Numbered from the stretch's first letter, positions 2,042 through 46,137 are shown. The stretch is 64,000 nt of DNA from Candidatus Curtissbacteria bacterium (GCA_030647775.1 JAUSJC010000010.1:72718-136717), one strand, 5' to 3'. The notes: generated by a model not told the origin, from the sequence alone. Translations and numbers: made by a program.

Positions 2042-3478
2042 CTAATTTTTTTTGAGAAGATAGACGTCGCCGGAGGCAGCAACCAGCTTATAGATATTTC
2101 CGTCAACTAGCTCCCGAAATTGCCTGGTTGCTGTTTGCAAATTTCCGTTATAGAAATTCCAATTGTTTTGGCCCGGATGGAGGTCAAAAACAATATAGTC
2201 TGCGCTATGGAAGTTTGGTAATAAATAAATAAATTTCCGGTGTGAAACATGCGGCAGCAAATTATTTTGGGAGGCGAGAGATGCGTCTTTTGGTACTAGG
2301 GATAAGATTTTTCGCGTATCGGCCGTCCATGGTTCGTCCTGATAAAAGTTTTTCTTGAGTAAATTCTTAAGTGGGGCGTGAAGCAGCCCAAAAGACATTG
2401 CCTGTCCGAAAATAATAAGGGCAATAATTATTGCCGCCGCACTGCGCTTTGGGAATCTTGCCAAAAGCATCCTGGCGCCAAATATTGCCGACACACTCAT
2501 CAAAACTCCAAGCTCCGCTCCGTAGTGGTAATAAAGGGTCCAGCGGATTGGATGCATCAGGTCTAAAAATCTTGACGCAAATTGAAATAAAATAGCCGGC
2601 GCAAGCGGCAAAAACGATAAAGGGATAAAACCAAATGATAAAAAAGACCAGAAGACCGTCGAAATTTTTTCTATAGGGAATAAAAAACTTCCAAGCGCTA
2701 AAAGGGGATTTTTAAGGTATTCAAAAATTGCACCCGGTAAAGTGTCATTAGTTTGGACAAAAGAGCCGTAATGAGATTGCCCAAGCGCCGGCATAACTAC
2801 TCCGATTGCGGTCATGGACCAGGCAAGTGGGATAATTACTGTCGCCAGCGCCGTCTTAATATTTTTCGTCCTTATCCAGACATAAATGCCAATAGTCGAA
2901 ATCAAAAAACCCACGTTTTCCCTAACCGTCAAACACAAAATTAATGCCGCGAGAAAGCTACGCCAGCGCCGTTTCTCCAAAAAGAAGAAAAGCCAGGCAA
3001 GGGCAAAAGGCAACATCGCCATCTCATGAAAGTCATAAACATTGACCGATTGGATGCCGACAAAATTAAGGTACGAAAAAGCGATAACCAAAGCCAAAAC
3101 GTTTGGCAAGACCCTCCTTGCCATGAGCCAGATTGGGAAAACCGCCGCCGACAAAATCACCGCCTGAAAAATTAAAATAACTCTTTCGTTGTCCGTGAAC
3201 CAGTAAAGAGTCGATAAAGGTATCATGATCGGCCGGAATCTGTCCGCCAGGTCAAAAAGGAAAGTGACGGTAGAAAATGGGCTTTGGAACTTGCTGTAAA
3301 GCCACAAAGCCTGGTCATAGATACTGAAATCAATTCCCTGGGATTGGAAGTGGTTGTGGCGGATAACAGCCAGTAAACTGTAAAGAGTGGAAAAAATAAG
3401 GAAAAACGCGACGATAACCCAGAAGTCGCGGCTGACCCCGCCAATTTTTTTTAAATCACTAGACCTTTTCTGTAACAC
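2042..3478 (-). CDS. DUF2079-like polytopic membrane protein (putative glycosyl/mannosyltransferase-like)
   Basis: 478 aa, many TM helices, N-terminal ...RHNHFQSQGIDFSIYDQALW... resembles DUF2079 family. Confidence 0.45.
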   Translation of the reverse strand: MLQKRSSDLKKIGGVSRDFWVIVAFFLIFSTLYSLLAVIRHNHFQSQGIDFSIYDQALWLYSKFQSPFSTVTFLFDLADRFRPIMIPLSTLYWFTDNERVILIFQAVILSAAVFPIWLMARRVLPNVLALVIAFSYLNFVGIQSVNVYDFHEMAMLPFALAWLFFFLEKRRWRSFLAALILCLTVRENVGFLISTIGIYVWIRTKNIKTALATVIIPLAWSMTAIGVVMPALGQSHYGSFVQTNDTLPGAIFEYLKNPLLALGSFLFPIEKISTVFWSFLSFGFIPLSFLPLAPAILFQFASRFLDLMHPIRWTLYYHYGAELGVLMSVSAIFGARMLLARFPKRSAAAIIIALIIFGQAMSFGLLHAPLKNLLKKNFYQDEPWTADTRKILSLVPKDASLASQNNLLPHVSHRKFIYLLPNFHSADYIVFDLHPGQNNWNFYNGNLQTATRQFRELVDGNIYKLVAASGDVYLLKKN

Positions 3479-3535
3479 ATTAGGCCCGCAGTCCCAAGTC
3501 TCGAAAGGACGAGGACCGCAGAGTTACTTCCTTAA

Positions 3536-37922: not shown

Positions 37923-38762
37923 TTGAATGAAATGAAAAAAGACTACTATGAAGTTTTAGGTGTCGGTAAAAACGCCGGCGCAGACGAGCTTAAAAAGGCT
38001 TACCGTACTATGGCGCGTAAACATCACCCCGATGTTGATAAATCCCCGGGCGCCAACGAAAAGTTTAAAGAAATAAACGAAGCCTACCAGGTGCTTTCCG
38101 ACCCAAACAAAAAGCAGGCCTACGACCAAATGGGTCACGCCGCTTTTGAACCCGGTGCCGGCGGCTTTGGCGGCGGCGCGGGCCAGGGTCCGTTCCAATA
38201 CCAGTGGTCTAGCCAGGGCGGCCAGGGATTCGAAGGATTTTCCGACCCTTTTGATATTTTTGAAATGTTTTTCGGCGGCCAGTCGCCTTTTGGCCGCGAA
38301 GCCCGTTTACCCCGTTACCAAATCCAGATCGATTTCACGGAAGCCGTCAATGGCGTAACCAAAGAAGTAGAAATAGAAGGCAAGCGCCAGAAAATAAAAA
38401 TCCCGCCGGGTGTCGACGACGGCTCCGAAATCCGCTTTGGCAATTTCATAATCATCACCTCTGTGCGCCAGTCGCCAAAATTTAAAAGAAGGGGATACGA
38501 CATTATCACCGAACACGAAATTACCTTTAGCCAAGCCGCGCTCGGCACCGAAGCGCGGATCGAAACCGTCTACGGCCCGGTAACCATAAGGATTCCCGCC
38601 GGCACCCAACCCGGCACGCAAATCCGCCTCAAAGGCAAAGGCGTCAAGCACCCCAGCGGCCGCGGCGTCGGCGACCACTACGTAATTATTAGATTAAACG
38701 TCCCAACGCGATTGTCCAAGGAGCAAAAAAAGTTACTGGAAGAATTAGAAAATCAATCATAA
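37923..38762 (+). CDS. dnaJ: DnaJ-class J-domain co-chaperone lacking zinc-finger (type II/CbpA-like)
   Basis: DYYEVLGV...HPD J domain, G/F-rich linker, C-terminal substrate-binding domains, no CxxCxGxG repeats. Confidence 0.8.
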   Translation: MNEMKKDYYEVLGVGKNAGADELKKAYRTMARKHHPDVDKSPGANEKFKEINEAYQVLSDPNKKQAYDQMGHAAFEPGAGGFGGGAGQGPFQYQWSSQGGQGFEGFSDPFDIFEMFFGGQSPFGREARLPRYQIQIDFTEAVNGVTKEVEIEGKRQKIKIPPGVDDGSEIRFGNFIIITSVRQSPKFKRRGYDIITEHEITFSQAALGTEARIETVYGPVTIRIPAGTQPGTQIRLKGKGVKHPSGRGVGDHYVIIRLNVPTRLSKEQKKLLEELENQS

Positions 38763-39285: not shown

Positions 39286-39329
39286 CCCCAATTTTCCCGC
39301 CCGAATTTTTTTGGCTTTGATATAATTGC
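39286..39329 (+). promoter_or_regulatory. Cassette boundary/promoter motif copy 1 (degenerate): CCCCAATTTTCCCGCCCGAATTTTTTTGGCTTTGATATAAT
   Basis: Extended -10 TGATATAAT 39318-39326, 6 nt before ATG 39333. Confidence 0.6.
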
Positions 39330-39332
39330 TTG

Positions 39333-39659
39333 ATGCAAACAAAAATTATTTTGACAACCTCTACACTTATCATCGTATCTTTGCTTGTCGGTGCATTTTA
39401 TTGGTTTGTATCGAGACCTCAAGAGATTAGAAAAAGATGTTACAGTGAAATGTCCAGTTTAAGTGTTGATATTACTAAGCCCCCTAACGAAGCTTCCAGC
39501 TCTGTTTTTACTAGTACTCTCCCGCCACTAAGTAATGTAGGTCAACAAATACTTGAAGGTAAAAAACTAATTACCGATAAAGATAAAAATAATTATTACA
39601 GATCTTGCCTCGTAAAAAATGGACTCAAGCCCGAATCGCTATATGTGAATGTAAATTGA
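39333..39659 (+). CDS. Small membrane-anchored hypothetical protein (cassette 1)
   Basis: ~108 aa, N-terminal TM. Confidence 0.4.
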   Translation: MQTKIILTTSTLIIVSLLVGAFYWFVSRPQEIRKRCYSEMSSLSVDITKPPNEASSSVFTSTLPPLSNVGQQILEGKKLITDKDKNNYYRSCLVKNGLKPESLYVNVN

Positions 39660-39694
39660 GATTCCAATAAGTAAGCACAATTAGAATTTTAGTT

Positions 39695-39720
39695 CCCCAA
39701 ATTCCCCGCTCGATTTTGCT
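39695..39720 (+). promoter_or_regulatory. Cassette boundary motif copy 2 (CCCCAAATTCCCCGCTCGATTTTGCT; -10 part degenerate)
   Basis: Direct reading. Confidence 0.6.
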
Positions 39721-39742
39721 TTGAGTTGTCCCAAAAAGAAGC

Positions 39743-40378
39743 TTAACTGACCAATTCTCTTAGGTCTGGTACTTCTAAAACTTTTCCAAGTTCCCACTCA
39801 TTGCCATTAAAATCAAATCTCGGTATTGAATAAACGCTTCTTTGTCTTGATATTCCCCTAATAATTGGGCCCAAGCGTTGCAAGCTATTAAGCCTATCTT
39901 CGTTTCGTTTTCTGATTTGACCTTCTATTCCAGTATGTGCCGCTCCAATTACCGTTACAAGGTGGTTCAGACCTTCTACGTTTTTCATCAGCCATTCCTC
40001 TTTATGCGCGGTGATAGTTTCCCTGAGTCTTGAAGTTGGTCGAAAGGGCAAAAGGTAAATTTCTGGGAAAGCAATAAAACTCCTAATGCCTAAGTCTGCA
40101 TGATATACAGGGATTCGATACCTTTCCGCGTAATCAAGAACGCTAGAAAATTGCGGAAGAAATAGTCTGCCTAGCCCACTAAAATATTCTGGAAGCTCCT
40201 GTCCATATCTATCGGATGGCCACTCTATAACAAACGCGTCTAAATCGGGGGGAACAAAATCTAAATTTGTCCTTCGGTTGTGAGCACCATACACGATTGT
40301 GTAGACCCCTTCGGGCTTTTCGATTCGAGTAACTTTACTAGGGTCTTCTTGTCTTAAACGTTCATTCATAGCAAAAGT
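39743..40378 (-). CDS. TraB/GumN-like family protein (tentative; cassette 2, inverted)
   Basis: VYGAHN and VIGAAHTGIEG GxxH-type motifs; ORF-track N-terminus (to 40549) is antisense of neighbouring EamA TM region and boundary motif, so start placed at MNERLRQ. Confidence 0.35.
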   Translation of the reverse strand, partial: TFAMNERLRQEDPSKVTRIEKPEGVYTIVYGAHNRRTNLDFVPPDLDAFVIEWPSDRYGQELPEYFSGLGRLFLPQFSSVLDYAERYRIPVYHADLGIRSFIAFPEIYLLPFRPTSRLRETITAHKEEWLMKNVEGLNHLVTVIGAAHTGIEGQIRKRNEDRLNSLQRLGPIIRGISRQRSVYSIPRFDFNGNEWELGKVLEVPDLRELVS

Positions 40379-40417
40379 GGAGTATAACAGGAATAGTGAG
40401 CCAATTTCAACTATAGG

Positions 40418-40456
40418 CCCAAATTCCCCGCTCGATTTCCGTAACTTCTGATATAC
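40418..40456 (+). promoter_or_regulatory. Cassette boundary/promoter motif copy 3 (CCCAAATTCCCCGCTCGATTTCC...TGATATACT)
   Basis: -10-like TGATATACT 40448-40456, ATG 40464. Confidence 0.6.
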
Positions 40457-40463
40457 TTTTCTC

Positions 40464-41312
40464 ATGTCTTGGATCGTATTGGCACTAGCTAGCGTTATAT
40501 TTTTCTCTATTTCCGCGCTGCTCCAAAAAGTCTTGATGAAAAACGACAAAAGCGACCCGTACGCCTATTCCATAATGTTTCAATTCTTAATCTGGGCTGT
40601 GGCGGCAACCGTTGTTCTTTGGACTGGCTTTGTTATGCCCCCCATTAAGACATACCCACTCAATTTCTTGTTTTCGTCTGTTATGTACGGCCTTGGAACC
40701 ATTTGTGCTTTTAAGGCGCTTAAATATATAGAAGCTTCGGAATTCACAATAATAAGCTCTGTAAAAGCTATCGTTACGATTATTTCTGCTGTTTTAATTT
40801 TGGGTGAAGTTTTTGATTACAAAAAGGCACTTGGTACCGCATTGGTTTTAATTTCTGCATATTTAGTTACCCAAAAATCCAGAAAAATAAAGTTCAACAA
40901 AGGCACCCTTTATGCTTTAGGGACTGCGCTGACGTATGGACTCGCTATTACAAACGACACATTTCTACTAAAATATTCTGAAGTATTTTCGTATCTGACA
41001 GTTGGTAATCTAATCACAGTACTTTTTGTGATTGCAATAAAACCCACAGCGGTTAAAAATTTAAACCATTTTTTCGATCTCGCGATTCTTTCCAAAATGC
41101 TTATACTCGGCATCTTATATTCTTTTGGAGCAGTCGCCTTTTATTTGGCAATTCAAAGTGGTGCAGCAGCTTCTCAAATCTCGCCGATTTTGCAGACCTC
41201 TGTAATTGTCACGGTTCTACTCGCAGCCATATTTTTGGGCGAAAGAGACAATTTGGTTAAAAAAATCGCAAGCGCTATATTGGTAACAATTGGAGTAATA
41301 CTAATTAAGTAG
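40464..41312 (+). CDS. EamA/DMT-superfamily transporter (cassette 3)
   Basis: 282 aa, 10 TM, duplicated EamA domains. Confidence 0.7.
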   Translation: MSWIVLALASVIFFSISALLQKVLMKNDKSDPYAYSIMFQFLIWAVAATVVLWTGFVMPPIKTYPLNFLFSSVMYGLGTICAFKALKYIEASEFTIISSVKAIVTIISAVLILGEVFDYKKALGTALVLISAYLVTQKSRKIKFNKGTLYALGTALTYGLAITNDTFLLKYSEVFSYLTVGNLITVLFVIAIKPTAVKNLNHFFDLAILSKMLILGILYSFGAVAFYLAIQSGAAASQISPILQTSVIVTVLLAAIFLGERDNLVKKIASAILVTIGVILIK

Positions 41313-41313
41313 A

Positions 41314-41349
41314 CCCAAATTCCCCGCTCGATTTTTGCCCTGATATAAT
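41314..41349 (+). promoter_or_regulatory. Cassette boundary/promoter motif copy 4 (CCCAAATTCCCCGCTCGATTTTTGCCCTGATATAAT)
   Basis: Extended -10 TGATATAAT 41341-41349; ATG 41356 (leaderless). Confidence 0.65.
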
Positions 41350-41355
41350 CACCTG

Positions 41356-41931
41356 ATGACAAAACTTATTTTTATCACGCATCCCGCCGTCGATGTTGAC
41401 CCCACGATTCCTATTAATCAGTGGCATGTTTCCAAAGATGGACAAAAGCAAATTGACAACCTTTTGACATTGCCCTTTTGGTCGGAAGTAGATGTGATTT
41501 ACTCAAGCCAAGAAGGGAAAGCGCTGAATACCGCGAATAAGATCAAAAGCCATTTTGACCATCTCAAATCTCCGGCACCAGAAGGAACGTTTGATCTGCA
41601 CGAAATAGACAGAAGCGCAACCGGAGTTCTTCCAAAAGACGTATACGATAAAGCGATCGAAGAATTTTACCTGTACCCCAATAAAAGTTATAAAGGATGG
41701 GAAACAGCAAACGCGGCAAAAGAGAGGATTTTTAAAGTTGTAAGCCAAATTATTGATGATAACCCCAATAAAACTGTTGCCATCGTTGGTCATGGGGCCA
41801 CCGGAACACTCTTAGCCTGCCAGATTAAAAAAATCGAACCCTCTTTTGCCGAGGATCCGCACACAAACGGCTGCATTATGGTTTACGATTGGGACGAAAA
41901 GACAATACTTTCGCCCTGGACCAAGTATTAA
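41356..41931 (+). CDS. Histidine-phosphatase superfamily (PGM-like) protein (cassette 4)
   Basis: LIFITHPAV (RHG-position His) and VAIVGHGATG second His motif. Confidence 0.5.
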   Translation: MTKLIFITHPAVDVDPTIPINQWHVSKDGQKQIDNLLTLPFWSEVDVIYSSQEGKALNTANKIKSHFDHLKSPAPEGTFDLHEIDRSATGVLPKDVYDKAIEEFYLYPNKSYKGWETANAAKERIFKVVSQIIDDNPNKTVAIVGHGATGTLLACQIKKIEPSFAEDPHTNGCIMVYDWDEKTILSPWTKY

Positions 41932-41976
41932 AATTCCCCGCTCGATTTTTGGTCCCTTGATGAATTAATGTATAAT
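41931..41976 (+). promoter_or_regulatory. Cassette boundary/promoter motif copy 5 (AAATTCCCCGCTCGATTTTTGGTCCCTTGATGAATTAATGTATAAT)
   Basis: TATAAT 41971-41976 followed by AGGAAAGGA SD-like and ATG 41996. Confidence 0.6.
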
Positions 41977-41995
41977 TTATAGGAAAGGATTTAAT

Positions 41996-42187
41996 ATGTC
42001 TGCAATTGACCTTCGGAAAATCTTAAAAGAGAACAAATCTGGGTGGGTAGCTTTAACTCAAGATAACAAAAAGAAAATAGCGCAAGGTAAAACCCTCAGC
42101 GAAGTACTTAAAAAAGCCAAAGAAAAGGGAATCGAAAAGCCCAGTGTGTTTAAAGTTCCTTCTCTGGGCACTTACTATGTCGGTTAA
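41996..42187 (+). CDS. Small lysine-rich protein (DUF5678-like/antitoxin-like, tentative), translationally coupled to downstream protease (cassette 5)
   Basis: 63 aa; stop overlaps next start (TAATG). Confidence 0.4.
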   Translation: MSAIDLRKILKENKSGWVALTQDNKKKIAQGKTLSEVLKKAKEKGIEKPSVFKVPSLGTYYVG

Positions 42188-42642
42188 TGGATTTCAGCTA
42201 CACAATTGTCACTGACTGGCCTAATCATCAAGTTCGTCAACGCTATCTCCCTTGGATAAATATCGGAATTAAAAAACCTGGCAAAGAAGACACAATTTGG
42301 CCATTGGGACTTGTAGATTCCGGTGCGGAAATAACTATTTTAGATAGAGAAATCGGAGAAGAACTGGGATTTAACTTTAAAAAAGCGGCGAGAGACATAA
42401 TCACCGGTTTTGGTGGGGGTAAAGTAGAAGTGTTTCTTCTGCAAGCGGAATTCGTCATCGATGATAATAGTGGGAAGGAACCTATTATATATAAAGATTT
42501 GTTAGGATTTACAAAAGGCCAATTCCCTCAAACCCATCCACAGCAAACTGCCATATTTGGAACCATAGGTTTATTTAGAAATGCTCAAGTTAATTTTCGG
42601 TATCCGACTAATATTCATATAGAACAATTCAAAGCGAAATAA
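42187..42642 (+). CDS. Retropepsin-like (clan AA) aspartic protease
   Basis: GLVDSGAEITILD contains D-S-G-A catalytic motif; 151 aa size typical of bacterial/archaeal retropepsin-like proteins. Confidence 0.6.
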   Translation: MDFSYTIVTDWPNHQVRQRYLPWINIGIKKPGKEDTIWPLGLVDSGAEITILDREIGEELGFNFKKAARDIITGFGGGKVEVFLLQAEFVIDDNSGKEPIIYKDLLGFTKGQFPQTHPQQTAIFGTIGLFRNAQVNFRYPTNIHIEQFKAK

Positions 42643-42645
42643 TTT

Positions 42646-42689
42646 CCCCCAAATTCCCCGCTCGCGATATTTGCTTTTGATATAATCTC
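42646..42689 (+). promoter_or_regulatory. Cassette boundary/promoter motif copy 6 (CCCCCAAATTCCCCGCTCGCGATATTTGCTTTTGATATAAT)
   Basis: Extended -10 TGATATAAT 42680-42688; ATG 42693. Confidence 0.65.
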
Positions 42690-42692
42690 TTC

Positions 42693-43418
42693 ATGCAAAG
42701 CTTCACTTTTAATAGCGATAATCTCAAATTAGATGGGGCGCTTTTTTATCCCCCGATTAAAAAGGTTAAACACCCTGCTATTCTTTTTGTTCATGGTTGG
42801 ACGAGCGCGAAAGAAAGAAGTTTTCAGTATGCAGAAGCGCTCGCTGATTTAGGTTACATCTGCTTATTGTTTGACATGAGGGGTCACGGAACAAGCGAAG
42901 GCGATATTAATGCTTCTACTTTCAAAGACTTTCTAGAGGATGTTATGAGCGCCTACGATTATCTTTTAGGGACGAGCGGCGTTAATCCGGAGAATATCAG
43001 CTCCGTGGGATCAAGTTTTGGTGGATATCTTGTGGCCCTTCTTTCCTCAAAAAGAAAAGTAAAGAATTTAGTATTACGTGTACCGGCAGATTACCCTAAC
43101 GAATCGTTTAATGATCTTAAAAAATTATATAGTGGCGATGATCCGGAAGCAGTGAACTGGCGAAATCAGTCAAGGAAATCAACCGAAACATACGCGCTTG
43201 AAGCACTGAATAATTTTAAAGGCGATATCTTGATTATTGAATCAGAAAAAGATGATACAGTTCCTCATCAAACAATTGTAAATTATATAAACGCAGTCAA
43301 AGACAAAAACAGATTAACTCATATCGTTATGAAAGATGCCCCACACAGTTTAAAAGAAGGTAAATTTAGAGATGAGGTTGGGCGAATACTTGCTAAGTGG
43401 TTTCAAAATAAATCCTGA
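42693..43418 (+). CDS. Alpha/beta hydrolase (dienelactone hydrolase/peptidase S9-like) (cassette 6)
   Basis: GSSFGG nucleophile elbow, HGW...., C-terminal D and H. Confidence 0.7.
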   Translation: MQSFTFNSDNLKLDGALFYPPIKKVKHPAILFVHGWTSAKERSFQYAEALADLGYICLLFDMRGHGTSEGDINASTFKDFLEDVMSAYDYLLGTSGVNPENISSVGSSFGGYLVALLSSKRKVKNLVLRVPADYPNESFNDLKKLYSGDDPEAVNWRNQSRKSTETYALEALNNFKGDILIIESEKDDTVPHQTIVNYINAVKDKNRLTHIVMKDAPHSLKEGKFRDEVGRILAKWFQNKS

Positions 43419-43434
43419 CGTTTTTCGTTAGGCG

Positions 43435-43450
43435 CCCCAAATTCCCCGCC
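43435..43450 (+). promoter_or_regulatory. Cassette boundary motif copy 7 (CCCCAAATTCCCCGCC, truncated)
   Basis: Direct reading; closes the array. Confidence 0.55.
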
Positions 43451-43452
43451 AT

Positions 43453-44406
43453 TTATATTTCCATTATCCAGTCTTTAAATTTATTCGCGTAAGAAAAGTC
43501 AGGCGAAGAAATCAAGGATTCGTCCAAAAATCCGCCGATTGCCCGCGCCGCAAAAATAACTTTCAATTTTTCAACCTTATAACCCTTCGCCAAAAGCATG
43601 GAGAATATCTTTTGGGCCAGTGGCGGATTTTGAACTACGCTAAAGACCCGCTGGATAAAATAACCGATATCATATCCCTCTACACCCCCTGCCATGGCGT
43701 GCTCGCCATCGATTAACCCCAGTTGCCCGGTTTTGAGTTTAAAAAGGTGCCATGGCGTAAAATCTCCATGCCGTGGTCTCATTTCTAATTTGTCAACACC
43801 ATCCGCGACAATTCTAAGTAGTCCCTCTAAGCCGTACTCGTTTCTTATATCCACCGGTACGTTTTCAAACCACGATTTGGTTTTATTAACAAACCTGGCT
43901 TTGTAATCTTGGTCCCCGTAGAATATTTCTGTTAAATTTTCAAACTTGAGCTCGCCAATAAACTCTGAAAAATCAATAATTTCCCGGAGGCTGTTTACTA
44001 AAACATCGGAAGTTTCTCCGGCTTTAGGCCTTTGCACTAAAAGTTCGCCTTCGAAATTATCTGTTATAAGATAAAAAAGTTTACTTTGCCAGATTCCGCT
44101 ATCGAAGTTCTGCGGTACCCAAAAGCCTGATTTTCGTCTTTCAACCTGCTTATTGAAAGCACTGTTCCAGTCTTTTTCAATCTTTGTAACCTCGCTTATT
44201 CCTTCTGTCGTTGCCAGCTTTAAAAATAAAACCTGTCCGGATTTTTCAAGTTCCCCAAGAACATGCCTGCCGCCTGCCCAAATCCTCCTGACTTTATATT
44301 TACTTTCAAAAAATTCCCGCGCCTTTTGTAAATCTAACTTGGCGCTTTGCCGATAATCCAGGGTTTTATCGTTTATTTTAATTTTGAAAGCGCTGATTTT
44401 TTGCAT
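43453..44406 (-). CDS. APH/choline-kinase-family phosphotransferase (protein-kinase-like fold) (cassette 7, inverted)
   Basis: HGDFTPWH (HGDxxxxN catalytic loop) and IDGEHA (IDxE/DFG-equivalent). Confidence 0.65.
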   Translation of the reverse strand: MQKISAFKIKINDKTLDYRQSAKLDLQKAREFFESKYKVRRIWAGGRHVLGELEKSGQVLFLKLATTEGISEVTKIEKDWNSAFNKQVERRKSGFWVPQNFDSGIWQSKLFYLITDNFEGELLVQRPKAGETSDVLVNSLREIIDFSEFIGELKFENLTEIFYGDQDYKARFVNKTKSWFENVPVDIRNEYGLEGLLRIVADGVDKLEMRPRHGDFTPWHLFKLKTGQLGLIDGEHAMAGGVEGYDIGYFIQRVFSVVQNPPLAQKIFSMLLAKGYKVEKLKVIFAARAIGGFLDESLISSPDFSYANKFKDWIMEI

Positions 44407-44781: not shown

Positions 44782-46137
44782 ATGGCAATACAACAAAGAA
44801 GTGAATTTGCGTCAGCTCTAAACCAGGTTTGTTCCGAGCGCGGAATCGAACCGGCAGTGGTTATCGACTCCATAAAACAGGCAATTCTGGCGGCCTACCG
44901 CAAAGATTACGGCGAACCCGAAGGTATTGAGGTCGAGATCAACGAGGTTAGCGGCGAGGTTACCCTCAAAAAGGATAAAGAAATTGTCACTCCTCCGGGC
45001 TTTGGCCGCATTGCCGCCCAAACCGCCAAACAGGTAATCTTACAAAGGATCAGGGAAGCGGAAAAAGAAGCCATCATGGGTGAATATTCTTCCAAAGTCG
45101 GCACCGTAGTTTCCGGAGTAATCCAGCGCATTTCCGGCCCGATTGTCACTATCAGTCTTGGTAAAGCCGAAAGTATTATGCCCCCGCCGGAACAGGCTCG
45201 CGGCGAAAAATATTATGTCAACCAACGCCTGAAATTTTATATTGTCGGTATCAAAGAAGGTATGCATGGCGAAGAAATCATCGTTTCCCGTTCGGCAAAC
45301 GGTCTTCTGGAAGGTTTATTCAAACAGGAAGTACCGGAAATGGCTTCTGGCGCAGTCGAGGTTAAGGCTATGGCCCGTGAAGCCGGATCGCGTTCTAAAA
45401 TTGCCGTTGCTTCCGGGCAGCTTGGTGTCGACCCGGTCGGTTCTTGTGTCGGCCAAAAAGGCGTCCGCGTGCAGGCAGTAATCAACGAACTCGGCGACGA
45501 AAAAATCGACGTTATTGCTTATCAGGAAGACTTGGCGCAGTTTATACAAGCCGCGCTTTCTCCGGCTAAAGACCTGCAGGTTAAAATCGACGAAAAAACA
45601 AAAGTCGCCGAAGTGACGGCGCCCGACGACCAGCTTTCTTTGGCTATCGGTAAAGAAGGCCAAAACGTGCGCTTGGCGGCCAAACTGACCGGTTACAAAA
45701 TTGACATTCGCGGCAAAAGTGGTACACCTAGAGAAGTAGAAGCCAAAGGGAAAGCCGCGCAGGAAGAAGCCAGAAAAGCCTTTGGAGTTACAGAAGAGTC
45801 GAGGGAGCCAAAGGTCGAAAACACTGAGCAAGCTACAGCCCTGAGCTCGTCGAAGGTCGAAGACCATGAGCGTAGTCGAATGGGTCGAAGTGCAGACGAT
45901 CAGGCTAAGATAGCGCAAGTCCCGTCAGGCGATGGTCAACCAAAAACTGACGAGGTTCCGGTAGGAGACACAGAGCCATTAATTTCGAGTAAACGAGAAA
46001 TAAGCTCTCTTATCGCCGATGCCGAAGAGAAAAAAGAAGAGGAAGAGGCAGAAAAAGTAGCAGAAGAAATCAAAGTTAAGCCGGAAAAAGCAGAAGAAAA
46101 TGAATCAAAACCAGATTCATCAGACGATCAACCGTAA
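44782..46137 (+). CDS. nusA: Transcription termination/antitermination factor NusA with repeat-derived acidic C-terminal extension
   Basis: N-terminal domain, S1 and two KH domains (GQLGVDPVGSCVGQKGVRVQAV, LAIGKEGQNVRLAAKLTGYKIDI); C-terminus contains repeat units at 45839-45862 and 46006-46028. Confidence 0.9.
   Translation: MAIQQRSEFASALNQVCSERGIEPAVVIDSIKQAILAAYRKDYGEPEGIEVEINEVSGEVTLKKDKEIVTPPGFGRIAAQTAKQVILQRIREAEKEAIMGEYSSKVGTVVSGVIQRISGPIVTISLGKAESIMPPPEQARGEKYYVNQRLKFYIVGIKEGMHGEEIIVSRSANGLLEGLFKQEVPEMASGAVEVKAMAREAGSRSKIAVASGQLGVDPVGSCVGQKGVRVQAVINELGDEKIDVIAYQEDLAQFIQAALSPAKDLQVKIDEKTKVAEVTAPDDQLSLAIGKEGQNVRLAAKLTGYKIDIRGKSGTPREVEAKGKAAQEEARKAFGVTEESREPKVENTEQATALSSSKVEDHERSRMGRSADDQAKIAQVPSGDGQPKTDEVPVGDTEPLISSKREISSLIADAEEKKEEEEAEKVAEEIKVKPEKAEENESKPDSSDDQP

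Follow-up and report, generated by a model that had tools for sequence, protein, structure and literature searches.

What a small, lysine-rich protein and a retropepsin-like aspartic protease might accomplish together, when the gene for one runs directly into the gene for the other, is the question raised by a compact locus of ~650 bp in Candidatus Curtissbacteria. The locus lies at positions 41996-42642 of the window, the 64,000-nucleotide stretch of DNA that was analyzed here, and it is laid out as follows.

41996..42187, + strand: small gene with an ATG start, encoding a 63-amino-acid DUF5678 protein, the proposed partner and putative inhibitor of the protease
42185..42189, + strand: TAATG stop/start overlap, in which TAA occupies 42185-42187 and its last A is the first base of the protease ATG
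42187..42642, + strand: protease gene with an ATG start, encoding a 151-amino-acid retropepsin-like (clan AA) aspartic protease

The first-pass annotation of this DNA had described a lysine-rich protein of the DUF5678 type whose reading frame ends in a TAATG overlap with a protein carrying LVDSGAE, and both the coordinates and the motif proved correct. It had also claimed translational coupling, a view that the stop/start overlap here and the tight junctions found across other loci bear out. The junction reads ggt TAATG gat and contains no strong separate Shine-Dalgarno sequence for the protease gene; given this adjacency and the overlap, translation of the protease is tied to that of its partner. 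A programmed -1 frameshift producing a Gag-Pro-like fusion was considered as well, the protease being read in the -1 frame with respect to the small gene, yet no slippery heptamer precedes the stop codon. The conserved M-x-F-x-Y start of the protease argues for its independent initiation. A search for RNA elements overlapping the pair returned a single sub-threshold, chance Rfam match and nothing else.

Both proteins are real and under selection. An identical 151-amino-acid protein, annotated as hypothetical, is present in a Candidatus Curtissbacteria metagenome-assembled genome, which places the window in a genome of the Microgenomates, within the candidate phyla radiation. Homologues in public data number 46 for the protease and more than 240 for the small protein. 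The two differ in charge: the small protein has 13 lysines among its 63 residues (21%) and a pI of 9.9, and the pI of the protease is 6.3 (4.4 to 6.4 in the three relatives for which it was computed). One DUF5678 partner from a Planctomycete is acidic, with a pI of 5.1.

[quoted passage not shown] The 151-amino-acid protein has a counterpart of each.

42316..42327, + strand: catalytic motif D44-S45-G46-A47, within L-V-D-S-G-A-E; D44 is invariant in an alignment of 23 sequences
42406..42420, + strand: G74-F-G-G-G78, the Gly-rich tip of a flap-like hairpin, located between modeled strands 68-73 and 79-91
42553..42561, + strand: hydrophobic-hydrophobic-Gly motif I123-F124-G125, the counterpart of retropepsin ILG/IIG

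Among the 23 close homologues, G74, G76, G77, and I123-F124-G125 are invariant, and at least 90% of the sequences keep S45 and G46. The pattern holds across a wider family of 184 members: 182 have the catalytic Asp and 179 have D-[ST]-G, the flap most often reads G-x-G-G, and IFG, ILG, LLG, or VLG occurs in 145. The retropepsin-like assignment made in the first pass had been based on the catalytic motif, and it is strengthened by the presence of the second and third hallmarks. The Pfam check recommended alongside it gave a divided result: PF18929 (DUF5678) was recovered for the small protein (E = 2.6e-8; 34 bits against a cut-off of 23.2), and the 151-amino-acid protein, taken alone, fell below the cut-offs for Asp_protease_2 (18.0 versus 24.3 bits), gag-asp_proteas (16.4 versus 28.2), and RVP (13.6 versus 20.7). 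An NCBIfam search with the protein had no match. Because these single-sequence scores are sub-threshold, profile and transitive evidence were needed for the family assignment.

Searched with a profile, a set of 1.84 billion representative proteins yielded 357 relatives, most of them 130 to 155 amino acids long and matched end to end, and the Asp_protease_2 gathering score was passed by 6 of the 10 relatives tested. A profile built from 33 diverse members matched, among PDB sequences, Ddi1 (1.7e-6), feline immunodeficiency virus (FIV) protease (2.2e-5), and Rous sarcoma virus (RSV) protease (3.6e-5), and a Foldseek search with the AlphaFold2 (AF2) model gave Rickettsia APRc (5c9f) and RSV protease as the best matches. 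We therefore accept, by transitive evidence, that the protein is a predicted clan-AA retropepsin-like protease; it is a divergent member of the prokaryotic single-domain group COG5550/COG3577. Its family conserves an N-terminal M-x-F-x-Y hairpin extension, and it is cytoplasmic in that no signal peptide or transmembrane segment is evident. To our knowledge, all retropepsins act as homodimers, and both dimerization and activity are predicted for this enzyme from its family. The catalytic motif is altered in a few family members (N-S-G-A in 2/184, D-S-R-A in 2/184, and D-P-G-A in 1/184; P0060 and P0029 are among these relatives), and these may be inactive variants that keep the partner gene. For instance, the pair is intact in locus L004, where the protease has DSRA.

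The small protein is harder to place by fold. It is predicted to form a folded core, alpha(6-12)-beta(16-20)-beta(27-31)-alpha(34-43)-beta(50-54), with a flexible tail beyond, and its AF2 model has a pLDDT of 76 that drops to ~51 in the last block. Fold searches of the PDB and BFVD gave no match (best PDB E = 3.1), nor did a PDB sequence search, and no DNA-binding or antitoxin domain or fold was recognized in it. The most distinctive conserved feature is the end of the protein.

42158..42184, + strand: C-terminal tail, residues 55-63, PSLGTYYVG, with an invariant Gly63; low confidence in the isolated model

Gly63 is invariant in two alignments, one of 17 sequences (17/17) and a diverse one of 36 (36/36). 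Aromatic and hydrophobic residues precede it, as in the tails YYVG, LFAG, and FFVG seen among 40 loci. In most members Gly is the last residue, and in Planctomycetota and a few other lineages it is followed by 1 to 5 variable residues (GSR, CGTGR, AVECR, Q, or MAP). An invariant terminal Gly raises the idea of a ubiquitin-like modifier; the predicted topology, alpha-beta-beta-alpha-beta plus a tail, does not support a beta-grasp, and neither ubiquitin, ThiS, nor MoaD was among the PDB fold matches. Conservation of the Gly codon could also be partly nucleotide-level, as GGN coincides with the expected place of a Shine-Dalgarno-like GG serving the protease gene.

Whether the two genes belong together was addressed with hidden Markov models of both proteins, run over every open reading frame of 52 fetched loci and the window. 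A DUF5678 homologue lies directly upstream of the protease gene, on the same strand, at 46 of the 48 protease loci with readable upstream DNA (E <= 1e-3). The two exceptions, L049 and L051, have weak look-alikes upstream, that in L049 being the C terminus of a 220-amino-acid protein. Paired loci are found in Curtissbacteria, other Microgenomates, Saccharibacteria, Elusimicrobiota, and Planctomycetota, such that the pairing covers four or more phyla, and it holds for proteases only ~24 to 30% identical to that of the window (P0081, P0084, P0074, and P0075). Moreover, the Elusimicrobiota and Planctomycetota partners also score above the DUF5678 cut-off. Across the loci, the two genes overlap by 1 nt (TAATG or TGATG) or by 4 nt (ATGA), or are separated by 0 to 2 nt, and no natural fusion of the two proteins was present among 206 retrieved proteins. 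The first pass had offered conservation of the pair elsewhere as a way to refute its proposal, and the pair is conserved. DUF5678 and the protease thus constitute a conserved two-gene module.

This module moves as a unit. When the two nearest open reading frames on each side were collected from 37 distinct loci, the resulting 103 proteins represented 127 Pfam families, none of which recurred more than three times. Close relatives of the pair occupy unrelated contexts, the flanking genes are mostly housekeeping genes, and the 103 open reading frames showed no enrichment for defense or toxin-antitoxin functions. Evidence for recent transfer comes from L024, a related Curtissbacteria contig with the same flanking DnaJ and NusA genes and different genes between them. 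The pair's proteins are 97 to 98% identical between the window and L024, with 65 to 78% identity at four-fold degenerate sites, whereas NusA and DnaJ are 68 to 71% identical, with 41 to 46% at such sites. By blastn, window 41931-42662 corresponds to L024 2742-3475 at 91.6% nucleotide identity, and the pair is all that the two have in common between DnaJ and NusA. The pair is far more alike than its flanking genes and is the sole shared block, indicating that it moved between lineages long after they diverged.

Taken across loci, the pair is a self-contained, horizontally mobile operon of several bacterial phyla. A plasmid or viral origin was considered and set aside: tblastn found no matches in 72,556 plasmids, and no relatives of the pair were found among IMG/VR viral contigs, leaving no close relatives in either data set. 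In L002, from Microgenomates, the pair is also located between nusA and dnaJ. The other genes of the L024 array encode a GDSL lipase, an AIG2-like protein, and a 67-amino-acid open reading frame product that looks membrane associated by eye.

Gene decay at the sampled loci has so far been one-sided. In L013 the protease gene is interrupted by a nonsense codon; in L035 such a codon replaces the invariant Tyr5 and a frameshift is also present; in L048 the gene has a large internal deletion; and from the Roizmanbacteria lineage of L015-L018 it has gone without a trace. The small gene is intact in every case. No intact protease without a partner was seen among the loci examined. These amount to four events, and because the protease gene is 2.4 times longer than the small gene, they are statistically not decisive (p is ~0.25 for all four to strike it by chance).

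Some loci adjoin classical toxin-antitoxin pairs, such as DUF4258 in L002, DUF6883/DUF4926 in L015, and a Phd/RelE-like pair in L048. In L015-L018 (2501-3560), the orphan DUF5678 gene keeps an NYFIG tail, and the DUF6883 and DUF4926 pair lies ~280 nt further on. Beside the decayed protease of L048 (1284-2759) is a gene for a second, different Asp_protease_2 protein of 214 amino acids with DTGA (E = 9.5e-7), followed, by eye, by a Phd/YefM-type antitoxin and a RelE/ParE-type toxin.

What, then, might the module do? We propose, with a probability of roughly 0.4, that it is a toxin-antitoxin-like protease/inhibitor unit or an abortive-infection unit. The protease would act as a homodimer, and the small protein would bind it as a pseudo-substrate, with the tail placed in the substrate cleft or against the sheet of the dimer interface. 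Such binding would keep the protease inactive, in the manner of a propeptide supplied in trans or of an antitoxin, and if the small protein were lost or titrated away, the enzyme would be free to cleave proteins of the cell or of an invader. The tail was counted toward this reading for its invariant terminal Gly and its low confidence in the isolated model. So were the classical toxin-antitoxin pairs beside some loci and the matches of distant protease relatives to B components of the PADLOC candidates PDC-M08 and PDC-M52. We retain toxin-antitoxin-like inhibition as the best reading, on circumstantial grounds, because the pair is a self-contained mobile unit, was recently transferred, and decays only on the protease side. 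The rating is not higher because binding, inhibition, and toxicity are all steps that we infer, the small protein lacks an antitoxin-like or DNA-binding domain, the neighborhoods are not enriched for defense genes, the decay pattern is indecisive, and the conserved Gly codon has an alternative explanation. Also, neither protein is homologous to a toxin-antitoxin family in Pfam, NCBIfam, or PADLOC, nor does the small protein match a PDB sequence or fold. It is conceivable, though on the whole doubtful, that the module represents an undescribed toxin-antitoxin or abortive-infection class, in which a homodimeric retropepsin effector would be held by a propeptide-like DUF5678 protein inserting its C-terminal tail, and which would spread among candidate phyla radiation (CPR) bacteria, Elusimicrobiota, and Planctomycetota.

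An obligate two-subunit protease is the strongest competitor, and we consider it unlikely. Here, DUF5678 would be no inhibitor but a positive cofactor or adaptor for folding, dimerization, or substrate delivery, much like the accessory domains beside the protease domain in Ddi1, and the complex would serve housekeeping or stress functions. An obligate complex would account equally well for the strict co-occurrence and the translational coupling, and the mainly housekeeping character of the flanking genes fits such a role. The DUF5678-like C terminus of the 220-amino-acid protein in L049 is arranged as a docking module would be, and the protease profile finds its top sequence match in the Ddi1 protease domain. 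However, it is odd for a pure cofactor that the intact small gene outlasts a lost or dead protease, and high mobility with recent transfer is unusual in housekeeping functions. The small protein also shows no ubiquitin-like or other adaptor fold.

The invariant tail invites a further explanation, which we judge improbable: the two proteins might be a substrate and its maturation enzyme, with the protease cutting the small protein at the tail to free a peptide or expose the Gly, and the processed product being the functional one. Retropepsins favor aromatic or hydrophobic P1 residues, and an aromatic residue is located two positions before the Gly; moreover, the 1 to 5 residues beyond the Gly in some lineages recall the precursors of C-terminal-Gly modifiers. 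Yet in most members the Gly is already terminal, which leaves nothing to remove, and the protease is always present nonetheless. A modifier pathway is further disfavored by the lack of a match to a beta-grasp or ubiquitin-like fold and of activating or conjugating enzymes among the flanking genes, and the orphan small genes retain the tail without a protease.

The last explanation concerns how the pair is carried, and it turns on the DNA around the genes. The pair belongs to an array of accessory genes at window 39286-43465, between dnaJ (37923-38762) and nusA (44782-46137), in which a short motif recurs. The elements nearest the pair are as follows.

41931..41944, + strand: upstream motif copy AAATTCCCCGCTCG, at which the block shared with L024 begins
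41948-41953, + strand: -35-like hexamer TTTGGT with a 17-nt spacer to the -10, a putative element by consensus resemblance only
41969..41976, + strand: extended -10-like TG-TATAAT, likewise putative by consensus resemblance only, with the same layout in L024
41981..41989, + strand: Shine-Dalgarno-like AGGAAAGGA, 6 nt 5' of the small-gene ATG
42651..42664, + strand: next motif copy, at which the shared block ends on the right; part of the putative promoter of the alpha/beta-hydrolase gene that follows

That the pair has its own promoter copy, as had been claimed, agrees with the promoter-like element preceding it; a scan with a strict promoter consensus did not list the site at 41969-41976. Sequences resembling TTGAC..TATAAT are found 5' of the small gene in other loci too. 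Each gene of the array sits between copies of a 17-nt motif. Seven copies of CCCAAATTCCCCGCTCG, five of them exact, delimit successive genes in the region from 39.3 to 43.4 kb; for AAATTCCCCGCTCG, the window has five exact copies against 1.2 expected, and none of 100 shuffles reached six matches. Downstream of three copies come a T-tract, TGATATAAT, a six-base gap, and an ATG, and a fourth has TGATATACT in the identical layout. The alpha/beta-hydrolase gene 3' of the pair, for example, has TGATATAAT, 6 nt, and an ATG at 42693, whereas the pair's own motif copy has a longer spacing plus a Shine-Dalgarno sequence. Because TGATATAAT and an ATG follow at a fixed distance, the motif is best regarded as part of a promoter, and its layout looks like that of a lineage-specific promoter for near-leaderless mRNA.

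The motif is genome specific, in that none of the 52 fetched loci carries it. A comparable arrangement is present in L006, from Curtissbacteria, which has a motif of its own, GAAAATCGTCCCGA, followed by TTTTTC and TGATATAAT. Copies at 2607-2630 and 3457-3480, 850 nt apart, flank the DUF5678-protease pair of L006, with others at 1632 and 3663, and the first copy drives a 36-amino-acid Cys- and Lys-rich open reading frame (MIKRKSTCGLCKPHKKWKRN...). In both the window and L006, the motifs look like promoter modules particular to a lineage, which may also act as sites of recombination. For the window, the repeats' service as recombination points is suggested by the transferred block, which runs from motif to motif.

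Two minus-strand genes of the region have no Pfam match. The first, at window 39743-40549, is a 268-amino-acid open reading frame, also without an NCBIfam match and the sole inverted gene in the array. It reads through the motif copy at 40421-40434 (translated as SSGEFG) and also overlaps the beginning of the EamA gene; its translation probably begins in fact at an internal Met near 40369. The second, at 43453-44406, encodes a 317-amino-acid protein containing HGDFTPWH...IDGEH, which presumably resembles the catalytic loop of an aminoglycoside/choline-kinase-type phosphotransferase; the 3' end of this gene adjoins the last, partial motif copy at 43435.

The phrase "cassette array" in the first-pass annotation is thus apt as a description of genes lying between motif copies and fails as a label for an integron-type array, the motif having no hairpin. 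The search for integrases covered the immediate neighbors of the pair. No hairpin or imperfect palindrome was found in five motif regions compared with shuffles (z-scores of -1.05 to +1.13), no inverted repeats were found at the boundaries, and an integron gene cassette was rejected on the absence of an attC-type imperfect inverted repeat there. That the pair is a promoterless cassette mobilized at the motif by a site-specific recombinase is very improbable: seven motif copies do delimit successive genes and the block shared with L024 does run from motif to motif where the other array genes differ, but the motif regions have no attC-like structure, the motif belongs to a promoter and is replaced by a different one in the same layout in L006, and the pair is found in many loci that have no such array. 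Instead, the array is a variable series of accessory genes, each with a promoter of its own.

Returning to the module as a possible protease and inhibitor, its broader meaning lies in a protein class that is widespread and little explored. Only a handful of free-standing bacterial retropepsin-like proteases are characterized, and their regulation is largely obscure. The searched literature described neither a function for DUF5678 nor its pairing with a retropepsin, and no description of a retropepsin-like protease toxin was found there. The pair is new as a conserved module, with an effector family and a partner family that are both new to protease/partner or toxin-antitoxin-like modules, and the pairing gives DUF5678 a functional setting for the first time, that of dedicated partner to a retropepsin-like protease. 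If the small protein is an inhibitor, aspartic proteases would join the effectors of toxin and defense systems, and DUF5678 would supply a natural protein scaffold for inhibitors of retropepsin-type enzymes, HIV protease among them. The module can also serve to trace recent gene flow from one CPR genome to another.

Among known systems, the nearest are the prokaryotic single-domain clan AA peptidases (COG5550/COG3577 "pSNCAPs," APRc, RimB, and Rlo), which have been described as poorly understood (PMC2642776; PMC4140852; PMC11957791; PMC12239564). Like them, the window protease consists of one retropepsin-type domain of ~120 to 150 amino acids with D-S/T-G-A, a flap, and hydrophobic-hydrophobic-Gly. 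Unlike the membrane-anchored APRc of Rickettsia and the secreted Rlo enzymes, its family is cytoplasmic, and whereas RimB of Pseudomonas works with RimA and RimK, the window protease is paired with DUF5678, a partner reported for none of APRc, RimB, and Rlo.

Two candidates for phage defense in PADLOC, the two-gene systems PDC-M08 and PDC-M52, also invite comparison (Payne et al., bioRxiv 10.1101/2024.01.29.577857). Their B proteins are retropepsin-like and ~120 to 140 amino acids long, and distant relatives of the window protease match them at 1e-7 to 5e-7, whereas the window protease itself matches the B models at E = 0.004 to 0.03 only, a relationship at the superfamily level. None of nine DUF5678 partners matched any PADLOC model, which indicates that the A components differ from DUF5678, and membership of the pair in either system was rejected on that ground.

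Ddi1 and Ddi2 resemble the pair in joining a small accessory module to a retropepsin-like domain, and Ddi1 is the best profile match of the protease. In contrast, the accessory of the pair is a separate polypeptide with no match to a ubiquitin-like fold and no UBA or HDD domain. The likeness to type II toxin-antitoxin systems is one of organization: small, codirectional, coupled genes, with the smaller one first, in a self-contained and mobile unit of patchy distribution that leaves orphan first genes and inactivated second genes. The pair differs from them in having no known toxin or antitoxin homology and a small protein without a DNA-binding domain. Finally, in pepsinogen, a basic prosegment occupies the catalytic cleft and blocks the aspartic protease. 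The resemblance, by analogy and not by homology, is that a Lys-rich, basic polypeptide accompanies a near-neutral to acidic aspartic protease, and in the DUF5678-protease module that polypeptide is encoded in trans.
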